From: a virus
Length of the DNA: 64,000 bases
Reading direction: 5' to 3' (one strand)
Virus record (IMG/VR): IMGVR_UViG_3300029922_000031
Span: 32,001 to 96,000 of that record
The position numbers and the translations under genes are program-made. The notes beneath the pieces were generated by a model that had not been told where the DNA came from, did no database searches, and saw nothing but the letters and a program-made list of their open reading frames with translations. Shown in pieces: positions 2,373 to 27,068 of this stretch; within the stretch, counting starts at the first letter, position 1, and each line of letters begins with the position of its first letter.

Positions 2373-2448
2373 TGGCTCCCAGGGCAGGGCTCGAACCTGC
2401 GACCGCTCGATTAACAGTCGAGCGCTCTACCAACTAAGCTACCTGGAA
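2373..2448 (-). tRNA. tRNA-Asn (GTT) with encoded CCA
   Basis: TTCCAGGTAGCTTAGTTGGTAGAGCGCTCGACTGTTAATCGAGCGGTCGCAGGTTCGAGCCCTGCCCTGGGAGCCA, 76 nt cloverleaf. Confidence 0.97.
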
Positions 2449-3626: not shown

Positions 3627-3702
3627 TGTGCTTGGTTCTTTCGTGCTTTTAGAGACTTTGGGTTCTTGCCTCTTCGCGAAGTCGCGAATTAGCTAACTCT
3701 AT

Positions 3703-3721
3703 TATAGCGAGAAACGAGCGG
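3703..3721 (-). promoter_or_regulatory. CCGCT-N8-GCTATA promoter (copy 1; others at 4652, 19711, 22680)
   Basis: Minus strand CCGCTcgtttctcGCTATAAT upstream of SSB. Confidence 0.65.
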
Positions 3722-4620: not shown

Positions 4621-4681
4621 TTGCTTCTCTGTAAGTCAGCGTTGATCTATGTATAGCACGAAATAAGCGGTTTGCACGCGG

Positions 4682-14837: not shown

Positions 14838-14893
14838 GGTTGTCAACAGTCTTCTGGCTGGTGAGCGCCCGAGCTTTGTCCAAAGGAGGACAA

Positions 14894-16045
14894 ATGCTTC
14901 AGACCGGCATTCGCCGCTTGAGCCCTGGCGCTCTAGCGGTCAGGGAGATTCGCGCTCAAAAGACCGAAGGTGTCAACCGCAGGGCGCTGCTCGCCGCGGC
15001 GCGCGACGCCAGCCAGGCTCTCGACCTTCGCAGCTCCGTGCGGCAGGTTCTTGGTGAGCTTGCCGCCTGCTATGGCGAACAGGAGCTCCAGCGCGGGCTC
15101 ATGGTCTGGCCCTCGAACGAGTATCTCTGCCGCAAGACGGGCTTGGCCGAGCGCACGATCCGTAAGTGCATTCGAGCCTTGATCGACGCCGAGCTGATCG
15201 AGCCGGTCGACAGCGCCAATCGCAAGCGCTTCGCCGTGCGCGGGCCTGGCGGGATCATTCGCGACGCCTACGGCTTCAATCTTGAGCCTATCTACGCCCG
15301 GCGCGCTGAGTTCGCCGGCGTGATCCTCGAGCACCAGCTTGCAGCCGCTCGTCGATCGGCGTTGTTCGACGAACTGACCATCCAGCGCAAGGGCGCCGAG
15401 GAAGCCCTGAGAGCGCTCAGGGCGAGCTTCCCCGCGGTCGAGTGCCACGAGCACGAAACGGCGATGATCGCGCTCCTGGCCACCCTGCCCCGCCGCTCAG
15501 GTAGGAGTGCGCCGGATGCTGCCGTGGCGGCGTGGTTGAATCTGAGAACCGCCTTGGAGAACCTGTTCTTCGAAGCCTCTCGAAATCAAAAAGAGTCCGG
15601 CAGAGCCGGCGATCCGTGCCGTCACAAAGAGCCAGACAAAAATTTCTCTATCGAGCTTTGCCAGAGGCAGCCGGAAGGCTGCGACCCGGTTCGTCAAAAC
15701 GAACAGCCAGCATTGGATCTGATCGTTGAAGCCTGCCCAGCGGCTGCGGCCTATTCCCGGCCTATCTCAAATGAAGATGACCTGATCCGGATCGGCCGGG
15801 AACTTCGGGGTTCGCTTGGAGCGTCAGCCGAGGCGTGGGTCGAAGCGACGGAAGGGATTGGATTACGGCGCGCGGCCGCGCTGGTGCTCTATGTTCTCCA
15901 GCTCGCCGACGATGATCAGAACTCGGGCGAGCAGAAGATCAGAAAGCCCGGCGGGCTGTTCCGTCACCTGGCGCGCAAGCTCGCCGAGGATCAGATGGAC
16001 TTTAACGCCGAGCTGATGGCTTTGCGCCGGCGACACCTGGCGTAG
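14894..16045 (+). CDS. repC: RepC plasmid replication initiator (repABC family), stand-alone
   Basis: VWPSNEYL...GLAERTIRKCIRALIDAELI...DSANRKRF...AYGFNLEP, IRKPGGLFRHL; AGGAGG SD before ATG 14894. Confidence 0.95.
   Translation: MLQTGIRRLSPGALAVREIRAQKTEGVNRRALLAAARDASQALDLRSSVRQVLGELAACYGEQELQRGLMVWPSNEYLCRKTGLAERTIRKCIRALIDAELIEPVDSANRKRFAVRGPGGIIRDAYGFNLEPIYARRAEFAGVILEHQLAAARRSALFDELTIQRKGAEEALRALRASFPAVECHEHETAMIALLATLPRRSGRSAPDAAVAAWLNLRTALENLFFEASRNQKESGRAGDPCRHKEPDKNFSIELCQRQPEGCDPVRQNEQPALDLIVEACPAAAAYSRPISNEDDLIRIGRELRGSLGASAEAWVEATEGIGLRRAAALVLYVLQLADDDQNSGEQKIRKPGGLFRHLARKLAEDQMDFNAELMALRRRHLA
15535..15660. other. Probable oriV inside repC
   Basis: A-rich stretch with GANTC sites (15538, 15593); repABC origins are known to lie within repC. 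Confidence 0.5.
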
Positions 16046-16179: not shown

Positions 16180-16209
16180 AAAAAAGGGCGACCCTTTCGA
16201 GCCGCCCTT
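16180..16209 (-). terminator. Rho-independent terminator
   Basis: AAGGGCGGCTC-GAAA-GGGTCGCCCTT-TTTT. Confidence 0.9.
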
Positions 16210-16236
16210 GGGACAGAGAGGGCTGCGAACAGCCAC
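16180..16236 (-). ncRNA. Candidate ~57-nt sRNA (shares the ligase terminator)
   Basis: TTGACT-N16-TAGACT promoter, GGCUG-UUCG-CAGCC hairpin, CU-rich linker, terminator with U6. Confidence 0.55.
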
Positions 16237-16278
16237 CCATTAGTCTACAGACGGGTATGGATAAGTCAACGCTGACGG

Positions 16279-19703: not shown

Positions 19704-19740
19704 TATTGACTATAGCGACTACGAAGCGGGACGCTCGCGG

Positions 19741-20817
19741 CTATGCGTAGGGATTTCGAATCCGAAATTTTACGTCTAAGAGCGTCGAATATGACTCGGC
19801 CTTCCGGAAGCTCTCGCGCACGACGACGCCCGGCACCTCATTTGGATCCATGTCTTTGGGCAGCCGGGCGATGCGAACCCGCAGACCGAGACGCTGGAGC
19901 ATCTTTGCGGCGTCGAGGGCAGCGATTAGGGCGGCAGACTCGCCGTCCCACATCAGGGTTACTTCCTCGAGCCCGGCCGCCTTGAGCCGCAGGAAGCGAC
20001 CGAGCTGATCGTTGCCCGATGGATCGCCGTAGGAGAGGTGCTTGCCGAACGACCCGACGCACACGACACTGCGAAGATCGACCTCTTCGTCGAAGGCCAT
20101 TTTGGTGGCGATCACGTCGAAGGCGCCCTCTCCCATGCAGACGCGCTTCACACCGACGGCGTTCTGACCGTTGAAGAGATAGCGGCCGGTGCCGGGCAGG
20201 CCCTTGGGGAAGAGGTACTTGCTCTCCGAGTTGCCGGTGATGTCGCGGCCCTGGAAGGTGACGAACTCGCCGTCGAGATCGTAGACGGGGATGATAACCC
20301 GCATGTCGAACTTCTGGCCGCCTTTGGAGCCGTCTTCCTTCTTGAAGTTCCACCAGCCGGTCTCACAGAAGCGCAGATGGAAATGCTTGGCCATTTCGAC
20401 CGTGCAGCCGCGCTCCTCGAGATAGAGCAGGTTCTGACCGTCAGACGTCGGCAGCTCGAACGAGTTCGGGAATTCCGCCTTCTCGTTCTCGACCGCCGCG
20501 GTCGTTAGGCGGCGCGGGCGCCAGCCCTGCTCACGTAGCGCGGTGCGCGCGTGTTCGAATGTCTCCCGCCAGGAGCCGCCGAGGTGTTCGTGAATGAATT
20601 TGAGCTTGTTGAAGCCCTCGCCGCAGGAGAAGCAGTTGCCAATGCCGGTGTCGGCATTCAAATATATTTTCCAACGGCGCTTTCCACACGTTGGGCATTC
20701 GTGCAGTTGAAGCTGGCGGCCGCTGCGCCCGTGAACTGACTTAAAGGCGATGCCTTCGTTCTCGAGATAGGTCTCCAGATCGAGAACCTCCGTGATCTCG
20801 TCAGCGTCGTCTTTCAC
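19741..20817 (-). CDS. DNA primase (zinc finger + TOPRIM)
   Basis: CPTC...CFSC, FQGR, GEGAFD, MWDGE, DPNE. Confidence 0.92.
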   Translation of the reverse strand: MKDDADEITEVLDLETYLENEGIAFKSVHGRSGRQLQLHECPTCGKRRWKIYLNADTGIGNCFSCGEGFNKLKFIHEHLGGSWRETFEHARTALREQGWRPRRLTTAAVENEKAEFPNSFELPTSDGQNLLYLEERGCTVEMAKHFHLRFCETGWWNFKKEDGSKGGQKFDMRVIIPVYDLDGEFVTFQGRDITGNSESKYLFPKGLPGTGRYLFNGQNAVGVKRVCMGEGAFDVIATKMAFDEEVDLRSVVCVGSFGKHLSYGDPSGNDQLGRFLRLKAAGLEEVTLMWDGESAALIAALDAAKMLQRLGLRVRIARLPKDMDPNEVPGVVVRESFRKAESYSTLLDVKFRIRNPYA

Positions 20818-21017
20818 TGGTGAAACTCGAGGAAAGCCAGGCGCTTCTGCCGATCCAGCTTACGCTCAACGGCGTCGAGATAGTCGTCGACCTCGGGTGA
20901 AACGACGGTGGCGGGGACTGCTCGCATGGACCGGCGCCAATTGCGCGGCTCGAACCGAAGCTCGGTCTCTTTGTCGCCGACCTCGATCGCCAGTTGAATC
21001 GCGTGTGTTGCGATCAA
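20814..21017 (-). CDS. Small hypothetical protein
   Basis: Start and stop overlap both neighbours. Confidence 0.6.
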   Translation of the reverse strand: MIATHAIQLAIEVGDKETELRFEPRNWRRSMRAVPATVVSPEVDDYLDAVERKLDRQKRLAFLEFHQ

Positions 21018-22375
21018 TGGGGCAACTCCTTCCCGATAACTCCTTTGAGAAATTGCATTTTTGATCTGTCAGATTTTATTCTAAGGATGAAGCCGTCCTC
21101 GCTGTTTCGCGCGGCCGCAAAGAACAGGCGACACTCGCCGGCTAGGCGCTCAGGCTCGGTCGAGTTGATGGAGATGACAACGTCGGCGGTGCGAATCTTG
21201 TTCAGATCCTCGGCGACGTCGGTCATCCTGGCGACGGACGCCTTGGCGCCTTCGCGGTTGGTCTGCGTAGCAGTGAGAACGGCGGCGTTGTAGTCGAAGG
21301 CGATCGCGCGCAGATCGATGAAGATCGTCCGGAGATTCTCGCGCTCGACGTCTGAGCGGTTCTCCGGAGCCATGATGTCGCCGTAGTCGGTGATGATCAG
21401 GTCGAAGATGATGCCGCGGGCTCGGTGGCGATCCAGAACGCGCCGAACTTCCGAGCATTTGAGCGAGCCGGAGGCATACTCCTCGATGATATATTGCCCT
21501 GCCCGCTTCTGCGCGGCTTCGACCGCCTCCTGCACCTTGAACGGGTTCGTGCCGACCAGCTTGATCAGCATGTCGGAGACGCTGGCGTCGACGCGATCGG
21601 CGATGATCTTGGCGCCCACCTCGCACGAGAAATAGATGACGTTCTTGCCGCCCAGCGCCGCCTGTTTGCCGAAGTCGCCAAGCGACATCGACTTACCGCC
21701 CTTGGGCGGCCCCATCATCACCGAGAGCTCTTTGCGGCCCCAGCCGTGGTGGTAGAGAAGCTTATCGAACTCCTCAATCCCGGTCGGGATGCCGTCGCGC
21801 ACGCGAACACCAGACAGAAGGTCTTTGCGTTCGGTAGTGCGGTGCTCGATCTCGGCCCAATAGTCGTAGCTGTTGCCCTCCTGCCCGGCGCCGACCATCA
21901 GCGCCTCGGACATGAGCTTCTGAATCTTGCCGTATTCCTTTTTGCTGACCAGCTCGGCCGAGGTGAGAATCGCCTTCTCGACCGCGCGATTGCGGGCGAA
22001 GTCGGAGATCTCCGCGATGACCATTTCGCGGTCGCCGATCGGCGTGACGACCAGCTTCTTGAGCTGAATGACAACCTCCGGCAGAAGGTCGGAGCGAATC
22101 TTCTTGGCTTCGAATGCGCGCTTGACGACGTGCGCGAGCGCCGAGCCGGGCGCCTCCTTGAAGCGAGTGAAGTGGTCCAAGCCGACCGCGACCAACGAAG
22201 CGTTGATTTCGCTGTCGAAATACTCGGGCTTGATCAGACCGTAGGTTCGAACCGCAAACGAAGTGTCGCGCAGAAGCAGCGCGACGATCTTCGATTGGAT
22301 GCTCTCGCCGAAGTCGTAGCCCGGCTCCGAGGGGTCTTCCTCGGGTGCGATAGCTGTCGCCGCGGTCACGGTCAT
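21014..22375 (-). CDS. Replicative DnaB/gp41-like helicase
   Basis: GPPKGGKS, FSCE, ITDYGD, TATQTNREG, ARNS. Confidence 0.93.
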   Translation of the reverse strand: MTVTAATAIAPEEDPSEPGYDFGESIQSKIVALLLRDTSFAVRTYGLIKPEYFDSEINASLVAVGLDHFTRFKEAPGSALAHVVKRAFEAKKIRSDLLPEVVIQLKKLVVTPIGDREMVIAEISDFARNRAVEKAILTSAELVSKKEYGKIQKLMSEALMVGAGQEGNSYDYWAEIEHRTTERKDLLSGVRVRDGIPTGIEEFDKLLYHHGWGRKELSVMMGPPKGGKSMSLGDFGKQAALGGKNVIYFSCEVGAKIIADRVDASVSDMLIKLVGTNPFKVQEAVEAAQKRAGQYIIEEYASGSLKCSEVRRVLDRHRARGIIFDLIITDYGDIMAPENRSDVERENLRTIFIDLRAIAFDYNAAVLTATQTNREGAKASVARMTDVAEDLNKIRTADVVISINSTEPERLAGECRLFFAAARNSEDGFILRIKSDRSKMQFLKGVIGKELPH

Positions 22376-22650
22376 TCCTTCGCGAGCGTGAAGCTCTCCA
22401 GAGTGTGCTTGAAAACAATCAGCGTTGATTGATCTTCGAAGACAAGCTTAAGGGCGTACTTGTCCGCCTCAAGAAGGAGTGCGGTTATCATGCCGCCGTC
22501 GTTGCCAGCGACAGTGATCATCTTGCCCCTCATGGAGGCCAGCTCGTCGTCGTGCGACCAGCTCTTTGGCTTCGGCATCGACGCCTTACGTCTTAAGCGA
22601 TCGGCGGAAAAAGTCTCACGGGCCTTGTAAACCTGCGGGGCGTTGCTCAT
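22372..22650 (-). CDS. hfq: Hfq-like (Sm-fold) RNA chaperone
   Basis: HDDELASMRGKMITV...DGGMITALLLEADKYALKL...LIVFKHTLESF aligns with the Hfq Sm1/Sm2 motifs (FDQFVILL...MVYKHAISTV). Confidence 0.7.
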   Translation of the reverse strand: MSNAPQVYKARETFSADRLRRKASMPKPKSWSHDDELASMRGKMITVAGNDGGMITALLLEADKYALKLVFEDQSTLIVFKHTLESFTLAKE

Positions 22651-22704
22651 CCGTAACTCTCTGTTTCGTGTGATGAATTTATAGCAGACGCAAAGCGGCT
22701 TACG

Positions 22705-23406
22705 TTAGGCCGCCTCGAGAATTCTTTGCGAGACCTCGTGGCCGAACCGGGCCTCGATCTTGGCGATCGGGAGAAGATCACCGTCAAACATGCCCTTGAG
22801 AGACATGAAGGAGTTGCTTCGCTTGGTCGCCTGGTTCATCAGCCACTCGTGGTGGTCGTCCTGCGCCGGCGTGCCGACGTAGTGCTGAACCCGGAAGCTG
22901 TAGTGGTCGCCAACGTGCAGAAAGCCCTGCTGATGATCCTCCCATTTTTTCTGGACGAACTCACAGACCTCGCCGGAGTAGAGCTGGGCGGGCCGCGGCA
23001 GATGCGGGCGCTTCCAGAATCGAAGGCACGCCTCCATCGCGAAGTCGATGTAGAGATCGTAAGGGATTCCCATCGCGTCGGCGTGTTGCCGGCCGCGCCA
23101 GATCGCTGAGATCAGCGCCTGCGGGCATTCGAACAGATCGTCCCTCTTGAGTGGTCGAACGGCTTCGGCGCCTCTGTAGTCGATCGTCTTACGAAAGAAG
23201 CGCCGATAGACCTTCTTGAACTCGTGGGCATAGAGATAGGTCGCCTTGACGGGGTTGAGATAGCGATAGTCGAACCACTTCGAGGTGAAGAGGTCGCACT
23301 CGTAATCGCGCCAGTCCTTTCGGACAAACCGAAACATGGCCTCGTCGCACTCCTCGTCCGACAGCGCCATGCCGATGATTTCTTCATTGCTTGCTGCGTC
23401 GCTCAT
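22705..23406 (-). CDS. Hypothetical phage protein (aromatic-rich), probably leaderless
   Basis: KWFDYR; TATAAT lies 7 nt before the ATG. Confidence 0.8.
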   Translation of the reverse strand: MSDAASNEEIIGMALSDEECDEAMFRFVRKDWRDYECDLFTSKWFDYRYLNPVKATYLYAHEFKKVYRRFFRKTIDYRGAEAVRPLKRDDLFECPQALISAIWRGRQHADAMGIPYDLYIDFAMEACLRFWKRPHLPRPAQLYSGEVCEFVQKKWEDHQQGFLHVGDHYSFRVQHYVGTPAQDDHHEWLMNQATKRSNSFMSLKGMFDGDLLPIAKIEARFGHEVSQRILEAA

Positions 23407-24331: not shown

Positions 24332-25420
24332 TTACATTTCGTACCAGCCCTTCCCCCACAGCAGCAGCAGACGCTCAAAGTACGCCTCGTATTTGGCGCC
24401 GATGACGGCGTGCGAATAGCGATCGATGACGTGGTTCTGAATTTTGAGCGGCGTTAGCGATCGAGCTTTGATCGCCGCGTCGCAGAATTCCTTGAACGTG
24501 CGGCAGCGAAAGCCGGTGACGCCGTCGATAACGGTCTCGGTGAACGCGCCCCAGTCGCTGGTGATGACTGGCGTGCCGCAGGCCATCGCTTCGATCGCGA
24601 CGTTGCCGAAGGGCTCGATATAGATCGTAGGAACGAACACGGCCGTCGCCTCACTCATGAGCTTGCCGCGCTCTTCCGGGCCGACGACACCGACGTATTC
24701 GACTTCGGGCGACCAGACGAGACCGGCCTCTTTGGCGCCAGGGCCTGCAATCACGAGTCGCTTGCCGAGCCTCTGGCAGACCTCGATCGCGATCTTGTAG
24801 CCCTTGCGATCGATCAGCCGGCCGACGAAGAGGTAGTAGTCCTTCTTCTTGCGAGTCGCCGCAGATCCCAGAGGAAACATGGCCGGATCGAGATAGCCGG
24901 GAATGACGGCCTCGAACCATTCGCCGTTGGCGTTCTGCGGATTGCCGTGCGTCGCGGCGCCGTAGCAGGTGTGCATCCAGGCGTAGCTCTCCCACACCCG
25001 ATATTTCGAGAACGTCCCGCCGTAGCCAATGCCAAACTCGACGGTCATGAACTCGGGGAAAGCGTCGGCGATCGCCTTGTGCGGGTAGCCGCCGATCACG
25101 CAGATGAAGTCCTTGGGGAGCGCACGCCTACGAATCTCGGTGATCGCGTTGGCGTTAAAGAGACGCCAATGAGCGTCGTTGGGGTCGAAGCTGGCGCTGA
25201 CGTAGTGCTTGTCGCCGACTGCGGCCGCTCGAACGATTTCCGAGATACAGGGGATGTGTTCGGTGCAGGGCGCCTCGTTCTGTTCGCCGGCGTAGAGAAA
25301 GACCTCATGACCGCGCGCCATCATCATCTTGCAGAAGCCGATGACCTTCGCCGTGTAGGCGCAGGTTGAAAACTCGGCGACCGTGTTCGTGTGGGGTAAA
25401 CTGACAACGTGGAAGCGCAT
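24332..25420 (-). CDS. GT-B (GT4-like) glycosyltransferase
   Basis: FVGRLIDRKG, EPFGNVAIEAMACGTPVI, ETVIDGVTGF. Confidence 0.93.
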   Translation of the reverse strand: MRFHVVSLPHTNTVAEFSTCAYTAKVIGFCKMMMARGHEVFLYAGEQNEAPCTEHIPCISEIVRAAAVGDKHYVSASFDPNDAHWRLFNANAITEIRRRALPKDFICVIGGYPHKAIADAFPEFMTVEFGIGYGGTFSKYRVWESYAWMHTCYGAATHGNPQNANGEWFEAVIPGYLDPAMFPLGSAATRKKKDYYLFVGRLIDRKGYKIAIEVCQRLGKRLVIAGPGAKEAGLVWSPEVEYVGVVGPEERGKLMSEATAVFVPTIYIEPFGNVAIEAMACGTPVITSDWGAFTETVIDGVTGFRCRTFKEFCDAAIKARSLTPLKIQNHVIDRYSHAVIGAKYEAYFERLLLLWGKGWYEM

Positions 25421-25486
25421 GTCCCTGCCCTGAATCAATCATCACTGACTGATGTTATAGCGCACAGAGAGCCCCGTGTAGAGCGA

Positions 25487-26045: not shown

Positions 26046-27068
26046 TCACATCCCAAGCATTGCTAGGTTGAAGCCGAAAGTCGCGCTAATGTAGAAGGTG
26101 TAGCGGACCATGCCCGCCGCGCCGGTGCCGCCCGATCCCGACGCCCAGTTGCCGCCACCCCCGCCGCTAGGGGCCGCCCCGGCGTTCGACGACGTCCCAG
26201 CGTTGCCGCCTGCACCGCCATCTGGAGGGCCGCCCGCACCACCTGTACCAGTGGGAGACGCTGCACCGGCTGTGCCAGCTCCAGTTGGGCCGCCGCCGCC
26301 GCCACCCCCGCCGCCGGGACTGACCTGGCTGGAGTTTCCACCACCATTGCCTCCATTTTTCCCTGTAGCCCCTGTTGGCCCATAAGTGCCACCCGTACCA
26401 CCGACCGTATTGGTGATGGCGTCTCCGCCCGTACCACCCGTTGCATAGAGGCCATTGGCAATTGAAGTTGGCTGCGAGGTAGCTGAGATATTCAGCCACG
26501 AATTTGTTCCGGTCGCGCCAACGTTGATCGATCCAGCGGTCGTGGCGCCGACAGACCAATGAAGCGTACTTCCTGATGTAAAGGAGAGCAGGAGCAGGCC
26601 GGCATAACCACCACCAGCGCCACCCGATCCCGCCTTATTGTGGCCACCGCCTGCCCCGCCGCCAGCGTAAGCTTCAAGCCCGACGGCATATGTGCTGGCC
26701 GGGGCGCTTGCGCTGCCCGCGCCGGTCGCCGTGACGGTCGTCGAGAACTCGTAGGTGACGTCGCCGCCGATGCCTGGCGCCCAGCAGGGCGTCGGCAGAT
26801 CCCACAAGCTCGGCTGCAACGGCAGCGTGCCAGAGCCAAGCGCCTTGAGGAAGCGCTCCGACTGCGCGCGCGTTCGAAAGAAGCCGATCCACGCAGCGTT
26901 CCCGTCAGGGCGACGCGCGATCAGGTAGCGCTGCGGACGAGCAACGCCGTCGAGCGGGCGGGCCACGCGCTCCGAGCGCGCGATCGCCGTCCCTAGCGTT
27001 TCAAGCGCGCGCGCGGCAAGAAGACCAGGCGGTGGCTTGAAGCTGGGATTGTAGTGAGCCAGCATCAT
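26046..27068 (-). CDS. Glycine-rich tail fibre-associated protein
   Basis: GGGAGGG...GGAGGGY repeats; ATGA coupling. Confidence 0.75.

Follow-up and report, generated by a model that had tools for sequence, protein, structure and literature searches.

What would a phage use an Hfq-like protein for, and why would the gene for it lie directly in front of that for the replicative helicase? In many bacteria, RNA matchmaking centres on Hfq, and phages depend on host Hfq and encode Hfq-dependent small RNAs (sRNAs). The question is raised by a 64,000-nucleotide stretch from an uncultured phage (positions 32,001 to 96,000 of the 105-kb IMG/VR record IMGVR_UViG_3300029922_000031); we refer to this whole stretch as the window and give coordinates within it unless a relative is named. 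On its minus strand, an ATG-initiated gene for a protein of 92 aa (22372-22650), which we call the Hfq-like gene, is followed by the gene for a DnaB-like replicative helicase (21014-22375, minus strand; 453 aa; PF03796 with E=2e-13 and phrog_19 with E=4e-72). An initial annotation made from the sequence alone had described the small protein as a phage-encoded Hfq homologue that is translationally coupled to the helicase and may form a self-contained riboregulatory system with a phage sRNA. Drawing on the listing of open reading frames (ORFs), the family of related proteins, an AlphaFold2 (AF2) model and matches in the PDB, we conclude that the window protein is a real member of the Hfq branch of Sm-fold proteins, if a strongly diverged one, and we suggest that it may act as an RNA-binding accessory factor around the onset of phage replication.

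Sequence searches and structure prediction place the protein in the Hfq family

The elements singled out by the initial annotation were all found in the 92-aa protein, namely a basic N-terminal extension (residues 1-30; 22561-22650, minus strand) that has a net charge of +6 and ends in P-K-P-K, an Sm1-type DKYALKL (residues 63-69; 22444-22464, minus strand) and an Sm2-type IVFKHTL (residues 78-84; 22399-22419, minus strand). HMMER comparison with Hfq was positive through relatives and through the family profile but not for the window protein, which gave no match even at E≤1, and PF17209 searched against the whole 105-kb record gave no match at E≤10. An exhaustive phmmer search retrieved 127 cluster representatives (clusters at 50% identity) at E≤1e-3, nearly all of them 80-100 aa long. 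Among 60 aligned members of this family, Pfam Hfq was matched by 16, TIGR02383 by 12 and LSM by nine, the LSM matches being weak and running through the Sm1 half only. P0002 matched Pfam Hfq with E=1.7e-3, and P0003 (102 aa), whose best PDB match was B. subtilis Hfq, scored 27.4 bits against a cut-off of 27 and was the sole member above the curated cut-off. When the family profile was searched against the PDB, 31 of the 33 sequences found at E≤1 were Hfq or the M. jannaschii Hfq-like protein (best E=2.9e-4). None of the PHROGs matched any of the 60 members, and tblastn searches of 50,697 phage records with the window protein and a consensus-like relative returned nothing significant; cultured orthologues were found only with the protein of phage nickie as the query.

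The assignment to Hfq rests on sequence motifs, with an Sm2 of the form [FY]-K-[HS]-A-[IL] and an Sm1 end of the form D-[QK]-[FY], not R-G-x-N; the [IL]-R-G-x-N of a PF01423-type Sm/Lsm Sm2 is absent, and the motif in the window protein is F-K-H-T-L. A FljA-type tandem Sm repressor (PF03614) was considered and rejected: the window protein has a single Sm domain in 92 aa, and PF03614 was not among the matches of the window protein at E≤1 or of the 60 members. We conclude that the family is almost certainly homologous to proteins of the Hfq/Sm type. The proposal of a phage-encoded Hfq homologue is thus borne out by the family matches to Pfam Hfq, the PDB profile search, the fold and the pocket motifs.

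Structure prediction was done for a single chain. The AF2 model has a predicted local distance difference test (pLDDT) score of 83.6, with values above 90 in the core and of 63-73 in the N-terminal extension, and it contains the Sm fold presupposed by the initial annotation, as an N-terminal helix (residues 33-39) and five strands (44-49, 54-62, 66-70, 76-80 and 84-89). All matches listed by Foldseek at E≤1e-3 were Hfq or the M. jannaschii Hfq-like protein (TM 0.70-0.86, root-mean-square deviation (rmsd) 1.1-3.4 Å). In VIA structural alignments against representatives, Hfq came first (Z 10.1-10.8, rmsd 1.2-1.9 Å over 58-62 residues), and the neighbours in the ESM Atlas were labelled Hfq or Hfq_1. 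Identity to solved Hfq proteins in the structural alignments was 13-24%. A Rof/YaeO-like identity was rejected because Rof/YaeO scores below Hfq (Z 8.3); to our knowledge, Rof/YaeO has no [FY]KH motif. Because the conserved pocket described in the next section lies between subunits in Hfq, we infer that the protein most likely assembles into an Hfq-type ring.

The invariant residues map to the uridine pocket

Column counts were taken from 124 aligned family members. H33, D63 and K81 are invariant (124/124), and nearly so are W31 (120/124), L37 (122/124), G42 (117/124), L59 (119/124) and F/Y65 (122/124). Q64 occurs in 81 members (K64 in the window protein), and position 82 is His in 76 and Ser in 42. 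In the HMMER alignments, D63-K64-Y65 corresponds to Hfq D40, Q/K41 and F/Y42 (the DKY of S. aureus Hfq) and F80-K81-H82 to Hfq Y55, K56 and H57 (in YKHAI). Column counts and HMMER alignments likewise delimit W31-S32-H33 (22552-22560, minus strand), in which H33 is aligned with Hfq Gln8: in the alignment of P0003 with B. subtilis Hfq, the His stands opposite the Q of QDQFL, a register that agrees with the alignment to Listeria Hfq. The residue following H33 is Gln in 106 of the 124 members and Asp in the window protein, which also has Ala at the Sm1 glycine (Hfq G34). The aligned Hfq residues are those of the proximal uridine pocket known from Hfq-RNA structures such as 1KQ2. The proximal pocket is, accordingly, the site of the family's only invariant residues (H33, D63 and K81), together with the near-invariant F/Y65 and a position 82 that is mostly His.

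Outside the Sm core, the proteins have no C-terminal tail (a median of nine residues past the motif), and their N-terminal arm has a median length of 27 aa and a net charge of +6 and ends in P-K-P-K-x-W-S-H, with P26, K27, P28 and K29 each retained in 92-97 of the 124 members. This conserved basic arm, KPKxWSH, is new relative to bacterial Hfq. As judged from the alignment columns, the family has kept the uridine pocket, dropped the distal face for A-rich mRNA and added a basic arm.

The Hfq-like gene is fixed in front of the helicase gene and was lost twice

In the window, the stop codon of the Hfq-like gene (TGA, 22372-22374) and the start codon of the helicase gene (ATG, 22373-22375) overlap in an ATGA (22372-22375, minus strand), and an AAGGA Shine-Dalgarno sequence lies just upstream of the helicase start. 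Of the translational coupling proposed for the two genes, the overlap is therefore present in the sequence, subject to a qualification: the closest relative, L003, starts its helicase at a GTG that matches window positions 22367-22369, 6 nt further on, and because L003 uses this GTG, the true helicase start in the window may lie 2 nt past the Hfq-like stop and without overlap. The two genes abut whichever helicase start is right.

Related loci were collected with an alignment of a 22-member subset of the family. The order PhoH, phrog_2500 gene, Hfq-like gene, DnaB-like helicase gene and primase gene was found in all 20 IMG/VR loci with a gene of this family, and in 18 of 19 related loci the Hfq-like stop overlaps the helicase start or ends no more than 4 nt before it. 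In one locus (L009:1254-1330), the helicase frame runs from an in-frame stop at about 1277 to the beginning of the tblastn match at 1327 without an ATG, GTG or TTG; a sequencing error or a frameshift could explain this, as could an unusual start codon. At the DNA level, the nearest cultured phages are Rhizobium phages of the RHEph10 and RHph_X66 type and the Pseudomonas Nickievirus. Phage nickie encodes a protein of 89 aa annotated as 'hypothetical', gp117, in the same position and with an annotated 8-nt overlap with the helicase gene, and gp117 is homologous to the family (hhalign 94%, E=9e-8; profile E=3e-7). The orthologue in phage Nican01, which also has an 8-nt overlap, is labelled 'hfq: RNA-binding protein Hfq' in GenBank PP179318; the paper describing Nican01 nowhere mentions Hfq, and the label is annotation only. 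Because these isolated phages carry the orthologue, practical study of the protein is possible.

In RHph_X66 and RHEph10, the phrog_2500 gene is separated from the helicase gene by only 88-118 nt, and a profile search found no Hfq-like family match anywhere in their genomes. In a tree of DnaB sequences, both phages fall separately inside a clade of Hfq-like-bearing phages with support of 100/100, and RHph_X66 is the sister of L014 with support of 100/98. Because the two sit on separate supported branches, two changes are forced, and we conclude that the Hfq-like gene is ancestral to the lineage and was lost independently in RHph_X66 and in RHEph10. Because these are cultured, viable Rhizobium phages, the gene is dispensable. 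Their helicases match that of the window (47-50%) as closely as do those of Hfq-like-bearing relatives. RHph_X66 (L001) and RHEph10 (L002) are natural deletion mutants that can be compared with the Hfq-like-bearing sisters L014, L008 and L023.

Family members were also found on a 112,764-bp contig of Magnetospirillum molischianum DSM 120, on a 118,187-bp contig of Phyllobacterium myrsinacearum AN3 and in a Methylocystis metagenome-assembled genome. In the window, a gene for RepC, the repABC-type plasmid replication initiator (14840-16045, plus strand; PF03428 with E=2e-39, and PF11800), is convergent with the ligase operon. Because of RepC and the whole-contig relatives in alphaproteobacterial assemblies, the source is probably a phage-plasmid of alphaproteobacteria.

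The Hfq-like gene opens a replication unit behind a recurrent promoter-like motif

The spacer upstream of the Hfq-like gene is 54 nt long and holds a promoter-like CCGCT-N8-GCTATAA (22679-22698, minus strand) 29 nt upstream of the ATG. This motif occurs nine times in the window at two or fewer mismatches, against 2.5 expected, and none of 100 shuffles reached nine. All copies with at most one mismatch, as well as the two-mismatch copy at 25455, are intergenic and on the minus strand (3702-3721, 4651-4670, 19710-19729, 22679-22698 and 25455-25474). The GCTATA box is retained upstream of the orthologous gene in most relatives, and a scan for the generic sigma-70 consensus found nothing in the region upstream of the Hfq-like gene. 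CCGCT-N8-GCTATA(A) precedes replication and recombination genes and a glycosyltransferase gene, and no TTGACA-like -35 element accompanies it; from its sequence and distribution, it may represent a phage-specific promoter class. With regard to the suggestion that the Hfq-like gene is the first gene after a CCGCT promoter, the recurrent motif is thus real and its activity as a promoter putative.

Between this motif and the gene lies a purine-rich ribosome-binding region, ACAGAGAG (22657-22664, minus strand), of which AACAGAGAGTTA is kept in L003; ribosome sites of the AGAGAG type are frequent upstream of the orthologues and general in the lineage. The helicase gene is followed by an ORF of 67 aa (20814-21017, minus strand), which has a copy with 72% identity in L003 and no family match in Pfam or PHROG searches, and by the gene for a DnaG-type primase (19741-20817, minus strand; PF08275, Toprim_2 and phrog_47 with E=2e-50), the last gene of the unit. 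The next promoter-like motif past the primase gene is the copy at 19710-19729.

A candidate small-RNA gene lies downstream of the ligase gene

The sRNA that had been proposed as a partner of the Hfq-like protein corresponds to a candidate gene at 16180-16269 (minus strand), which consists of a TTGACT-N16-TAGACT promoter, a 5' hairpin, a CU-rich linker and an 11-bp terminator followed by U6. The promoter, which agrees with the consensus at 9 of 12 positions, lies past the ligase stop (16279) on the minus strand. The 5' hairpin is GGCUG-UUCG-CAGCC, the unpaired stretch is CUCUCUGUCCC, and the fold has a z-score of -2.7. The candidate sRNA matched no Rfam family, and a BLAST search of five related records with the window element as query returned no copy. 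Downstream of the ligase gene in G002, G004 and G008, however, lie elements built like that of the window: a TGCTATAAT promoter precedes a 5' hairpin and a CU-rich linker, and a terminator with U9-10 follows. An element of this build is also found downstream of the ligase gene in G006 and in RHEph10, which has no Hfq-like gene; no such element was seen in the ligase-downstream region of RHph_X66. The sRNA-like elements in relatives lie at L037:1975-2069, L036:1367-1449 (minus strand), L042:3064-3162, L051:1425-1519 (minus strand) and L040:3286-3362. MAFFT alignments of the elements were poor, and RNAalifold recovered the terminator only. From sequence and predicted folding, the element at 16180-16269 is a credible, conserved small-RNA gene, which follows the gene for the ATP-dependent ligase both in the window and in at least five related phages. 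Because RHEph10 keeps the element without the Hfq-like gene, its retention is independent of the Hfq-like protein, and co-loss of the two is ruled out for RHEph10.

Possible functions of the Hfq-like protein

Homology, fold, pocket conservation, synteny with coupling, and dispensability are the observations from which a function has to be proposed. Our preferred explanation is that the gene encodes a phage-dedicated, dispensable Hfq-like ring that would hold U-rich single-stranded RNA in its proximal pocket, be produced together with the helicase and the primase, and act on phage RNAs around the onset of replication. We give this explanation as a whole an even chance or marginally better; RNA is somewhat more likely than not the main ligand. 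Specifically, the pocket on the proximal face would bind U-rich single-stranded RNA, typically 3' U-tails, and six basic N-terminal arms (KPKxW, about +6 each), which are absent from bacterial Hfq, would probably add to the binding. One middle-type transcript would supply the Hfq-like protein first and in a fixed ratio to the DnaB-like helicase and the primase, and the protein would act on phage RNAs when replication starts. Its targets may be mRNAs or primer/origin transcripts of the replication module, and possibly a U-tailed small RNA of the phage: the hairpin and U-tail of the candidate sRNA are a ligand type suited to the conserved pocket, and the sRNA is a possible client. Because the distal face is unconserved and the gene was lost twice, we read the protein as a dispensable RNA-binding accessory factor and not as a global sRNA-mRNA matchmaker.

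Several observations weigh against this explanation. The window protein itself has no Pfam match at E≤1, no NCBIfam match at E≤0.01 and no PHROG match, and in the VIA alignments archaeal SmAP and eukaryotic Lsm proteins reach Z 9-10, within about 1 Z unit of Hfq, so that structure alone cannot single out Hfq. Within the pocket, an invariant His replaces Gln8, the uridine-contacting residue of the N-terminal helix, and in a third of the members Ser stands in place of H82. On the distal face, columns 48-54 (distal Tyr25, Ile30 and Lys31) are variable, and no residue exceeds one third except D51 (35%) and G52 (56%). At the rim (Hfq Arg16, 17 and 19), column 43 is K/R in 107 of 124 members, 63 of 124 have a basic residue in column 41, and Gly occupies column 42. 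The loci all come from a single phage lineage, so that their shared gene order may be simple inheritance, and the strict linkage to the helicase gene fits a role directed at DNA or at the helicase equally well.

Such a role is the most substantial alternative, in which an Sm ring or monomer would act on DNA or on the helicase as a loader, assembly partner, or binder of single-stranded DNA or of an origin R-loop, and would not serve to regulate RNA. The position of the Hfq-like gene, always directly before the helicase gene with overlapping or near-abutting codons, is where loaders are encoded in other phages, as G39P is before G40P in SPP1. The N-terminal arms are basic, no other loader is annotated, and the neighbouring phrog_2500 protein has no known fold. 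There are also precedents: plasmids of Thermococcus and Methanocaldococcus provide an independent parallel, with Zn-finger-Hfq-like genes transcribed in one unit with the helicase gene (PMC3543421), the Sm-fold protein Rof (YaeO), which matches the AF2 model at the Z-score given above, binds the hexameric helicase Rho (PMC11018626), and Hfq itself binds DNA (PMC7144919). At least two losses in viable Rhizobium phages with equally similar helicases argue against it, however, and because these losses are independent the protein is not an essential helicase loader. Moreover, the invariant residues are those of an RNA uridine pocket and not of an outer protein-contact surface, and a gene order shared within one lineage says little about function. 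That an Hfq-family ring was recruited as a dedicated cofactor of a DnaB-type helicase, its pocket and arms helping to start replication on primer or origin RNA or single-stranded DNA, is therefore a possibility we entertain but think unlikely.

The riboregulatory proposal of the initial annotation overlaps with our preferred explanation; in the form considered here, the phage sRNA (16180-16241) would have the Hfq-like protein as its dedicated chaperone, and the pair would control phage or host mRNAs, the ribosome site of the Hfq-like gene itself included. The sRNA has its own promoter, 5' hairpin, CU-rich stretch, terminator and U6, and a hairpin with a U-tail behind it is what the proximal pocket of Hfq binds; elements of the same build recur downstream of the ligase gene in G002, G004, G008 and G006, and 8 nt of the sRNA, CUCUCUGU, are complementary to ACAGAGAG in the ribosome-binding site of the Hfq-like gene. 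This complementarity is unspecific, however: the 8-mer ACAGAGAG occurs four times against 2.1 expected and is not enriched, the Hfq-like ribosome site ranks only 12th among 64 predicted targets of the sRNA, and AGAGAG-type sites are common throughout the lineage. The distal face, which bacterial Hfq uses for mRNA, is unconserved, and RHEph10 has a similar element and no Hfq-like gene. The sRNA is credible, but neither its retention in RHEph10 nor its predicted targeting favors a self-contained system, and we regard the proposal as doubtful. A take-over of the host, in which the phage protein would disable or compete with host Hfq through mixed inactive hexamers or by sequestering sRNAs in its uridine pocket, is quite improbable. 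Because the host groups of related elements (alphaproteobacteria and Pseudomonas) carry their own Hfq, the phage copy fills no gap, and conservation of the pocket for sRNA 3' ends but not of the mRNA face is what a sponge would require; phages are also known to depend on and to rewire the host Hfq network (bioRxiv 10.64898/2026.06.19.733364). Yet an identity of only 13-24% to solved Hfq proteins makes co-assembly with host subunits unlikely, the sequence carries no specific sign of this role, and the fixed coupling to the helicase gene would be left unexplained. Finally, the notion that the ORF arose by chance in GC-rich DNA or is the remnant of a gene in decay could appeal to the missing Pfam and PHROG matches of the protein itself and to the many random ORFs of such size in the window, but it is refuted by the conservation of the family, with 127 representatives, invariant residues in frame, a confident fold, and conserved position and coupling, and its probability is negligible.

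Neighbouring genes

The phrog_2500 protein (233 aa; 22705-23406, minus strand) is always encoded between PhoH and the Hfq-like gene. Its AlphaFold model is all-alpha (pLDDT 92.4, predicted template modelling score 0.87), it has no sequence match in the PDB and no Foldseek match there (best E 0.55), and the model suggests a fold that may be undescribed. Among the invariant residues of the protein are W44, Y47, R48, W103, R106, D110 and W155. Upstream of PhoH, a gene for a GT4-family glycosyltransferase (24332-25438, minus strand; PF00534 with E=4e-22) adjoins a very Gly-rich ORF of 340 aa (26046-27068, minus strand). A tRNA-Asn (GTT) gene at 2373-2448 (minus strand) is the sole Rfam or ARAGORN match in the window.

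Comparison with known systems

Hfq-like proteins on mobile elements are already known, and one orthologue of the window protein, that of Nican01, already bears the label Hfq; the window protein itself is not covered by any PHROG or Pfam family that we found. Searches of the literature turned up no experimental work on an Hfq encoded by a phage; they yielded only remarks based on structure, for instance that on the Hfq likeness of Adephagia gp39 (PMC11373665), and the note on archaeal plasmids discussed below. The window protein belongs to a phage family, 'Hfq-like before DnaB' (Nickievirus/RHEph10-like), that has no PHROG and is characterized by a length of 80-100 aa, a basic N-terminal arm, W-x-H, an Sm core with D-Q-F and F-K-[HS], and a gene between the phrog_2500 gene and the helicase gene. 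This family is large, with 127 clusters that extend from isolated Pseudomonas phages to elements of about 110 kb in cultured alphaproteobacteria. The nickie gp117 and Nican01 proteins are homologous and encoded in the same place, between PhoH and the phrog_2500 gene on one side and the DnaB helicase gene on the other; they lack KPKxW and have a longer beta3-beta4 loop, and gp117 has 18% identity to the family in the hhalign alignment.

The best matches in both sequence and structure are bacterial Hfq proteins (PF17209, TIGR02383; 1KQ1 from S. aureus, 4NL2 from Listeria, 6GWK from Caulobacter and 3HFO from Synechocystis). With these the window protein shares the Sm fold, the Sm2 [FY]-K-[HS]-A-[IL], the D-[QK]-[FY] and an equal spacing from the Sm1 Gly position to the pocket Asp. 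Unlike them, it scores below the Pfam and NCBIfam cut-offs, has an invariant His in place of Gln8, an unconserved distal face, at most one or two basic rim residues, no C-terminal tail and an N-terminal arm of about 27 aa with a charge of +6, and it is encoded by a phage and fixed before a helicase gene. With the pocket kept, the mRNA face dropped and a basic arm added, the family represents a natural experiment on what each surface of Hfq is needed for.

The phage helicase loaders SPP1 G39P and lambda P and the translational repressor T4 RegA are encoded by small genes directly before or inside a replication cluster and are co-expressed with the helicase. Their folds are unrelated, no similarity in sequence or structure was found, and the analogy is functional only. 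Rof/YaeO resembles the proposed helicase cofactor in that a small Sm-fold protein binds a hexameric RecA-type helicase (PMC11018626); it differs in scoring clearly below Hfq and in acting as a monomer on the RNA-binding site of Rho, and its target is a transcription terminator. A parallel in genetic setting is provided by the Zn-finger-Hfq proteins of archaeal plasmids (Krupovic et al. 2013, PMC3543421), in which an Hfq-like domain of a mobile element is likewise combined with an extra N-terminal nucleic-acid-binding part and encoded in a helicase unit, and for which a role in replication was proposed. The archaeal genes sit downstream of the helicase gene and their N-terminal part is a C2H2 zinc finger, whereas the phage gene lies upstream and its product carries a basic arm. 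The coupling to a helicase gene thus recurs independently, which points to a possible role of Sm rings in starting the replication of mobile elements; if the phage protein were indeed a helicase cofactor, it would be the bacterial-virus counterpart of archaeal Zn-finger-Hfq and would tie Sm proteins directly to DNA replication.

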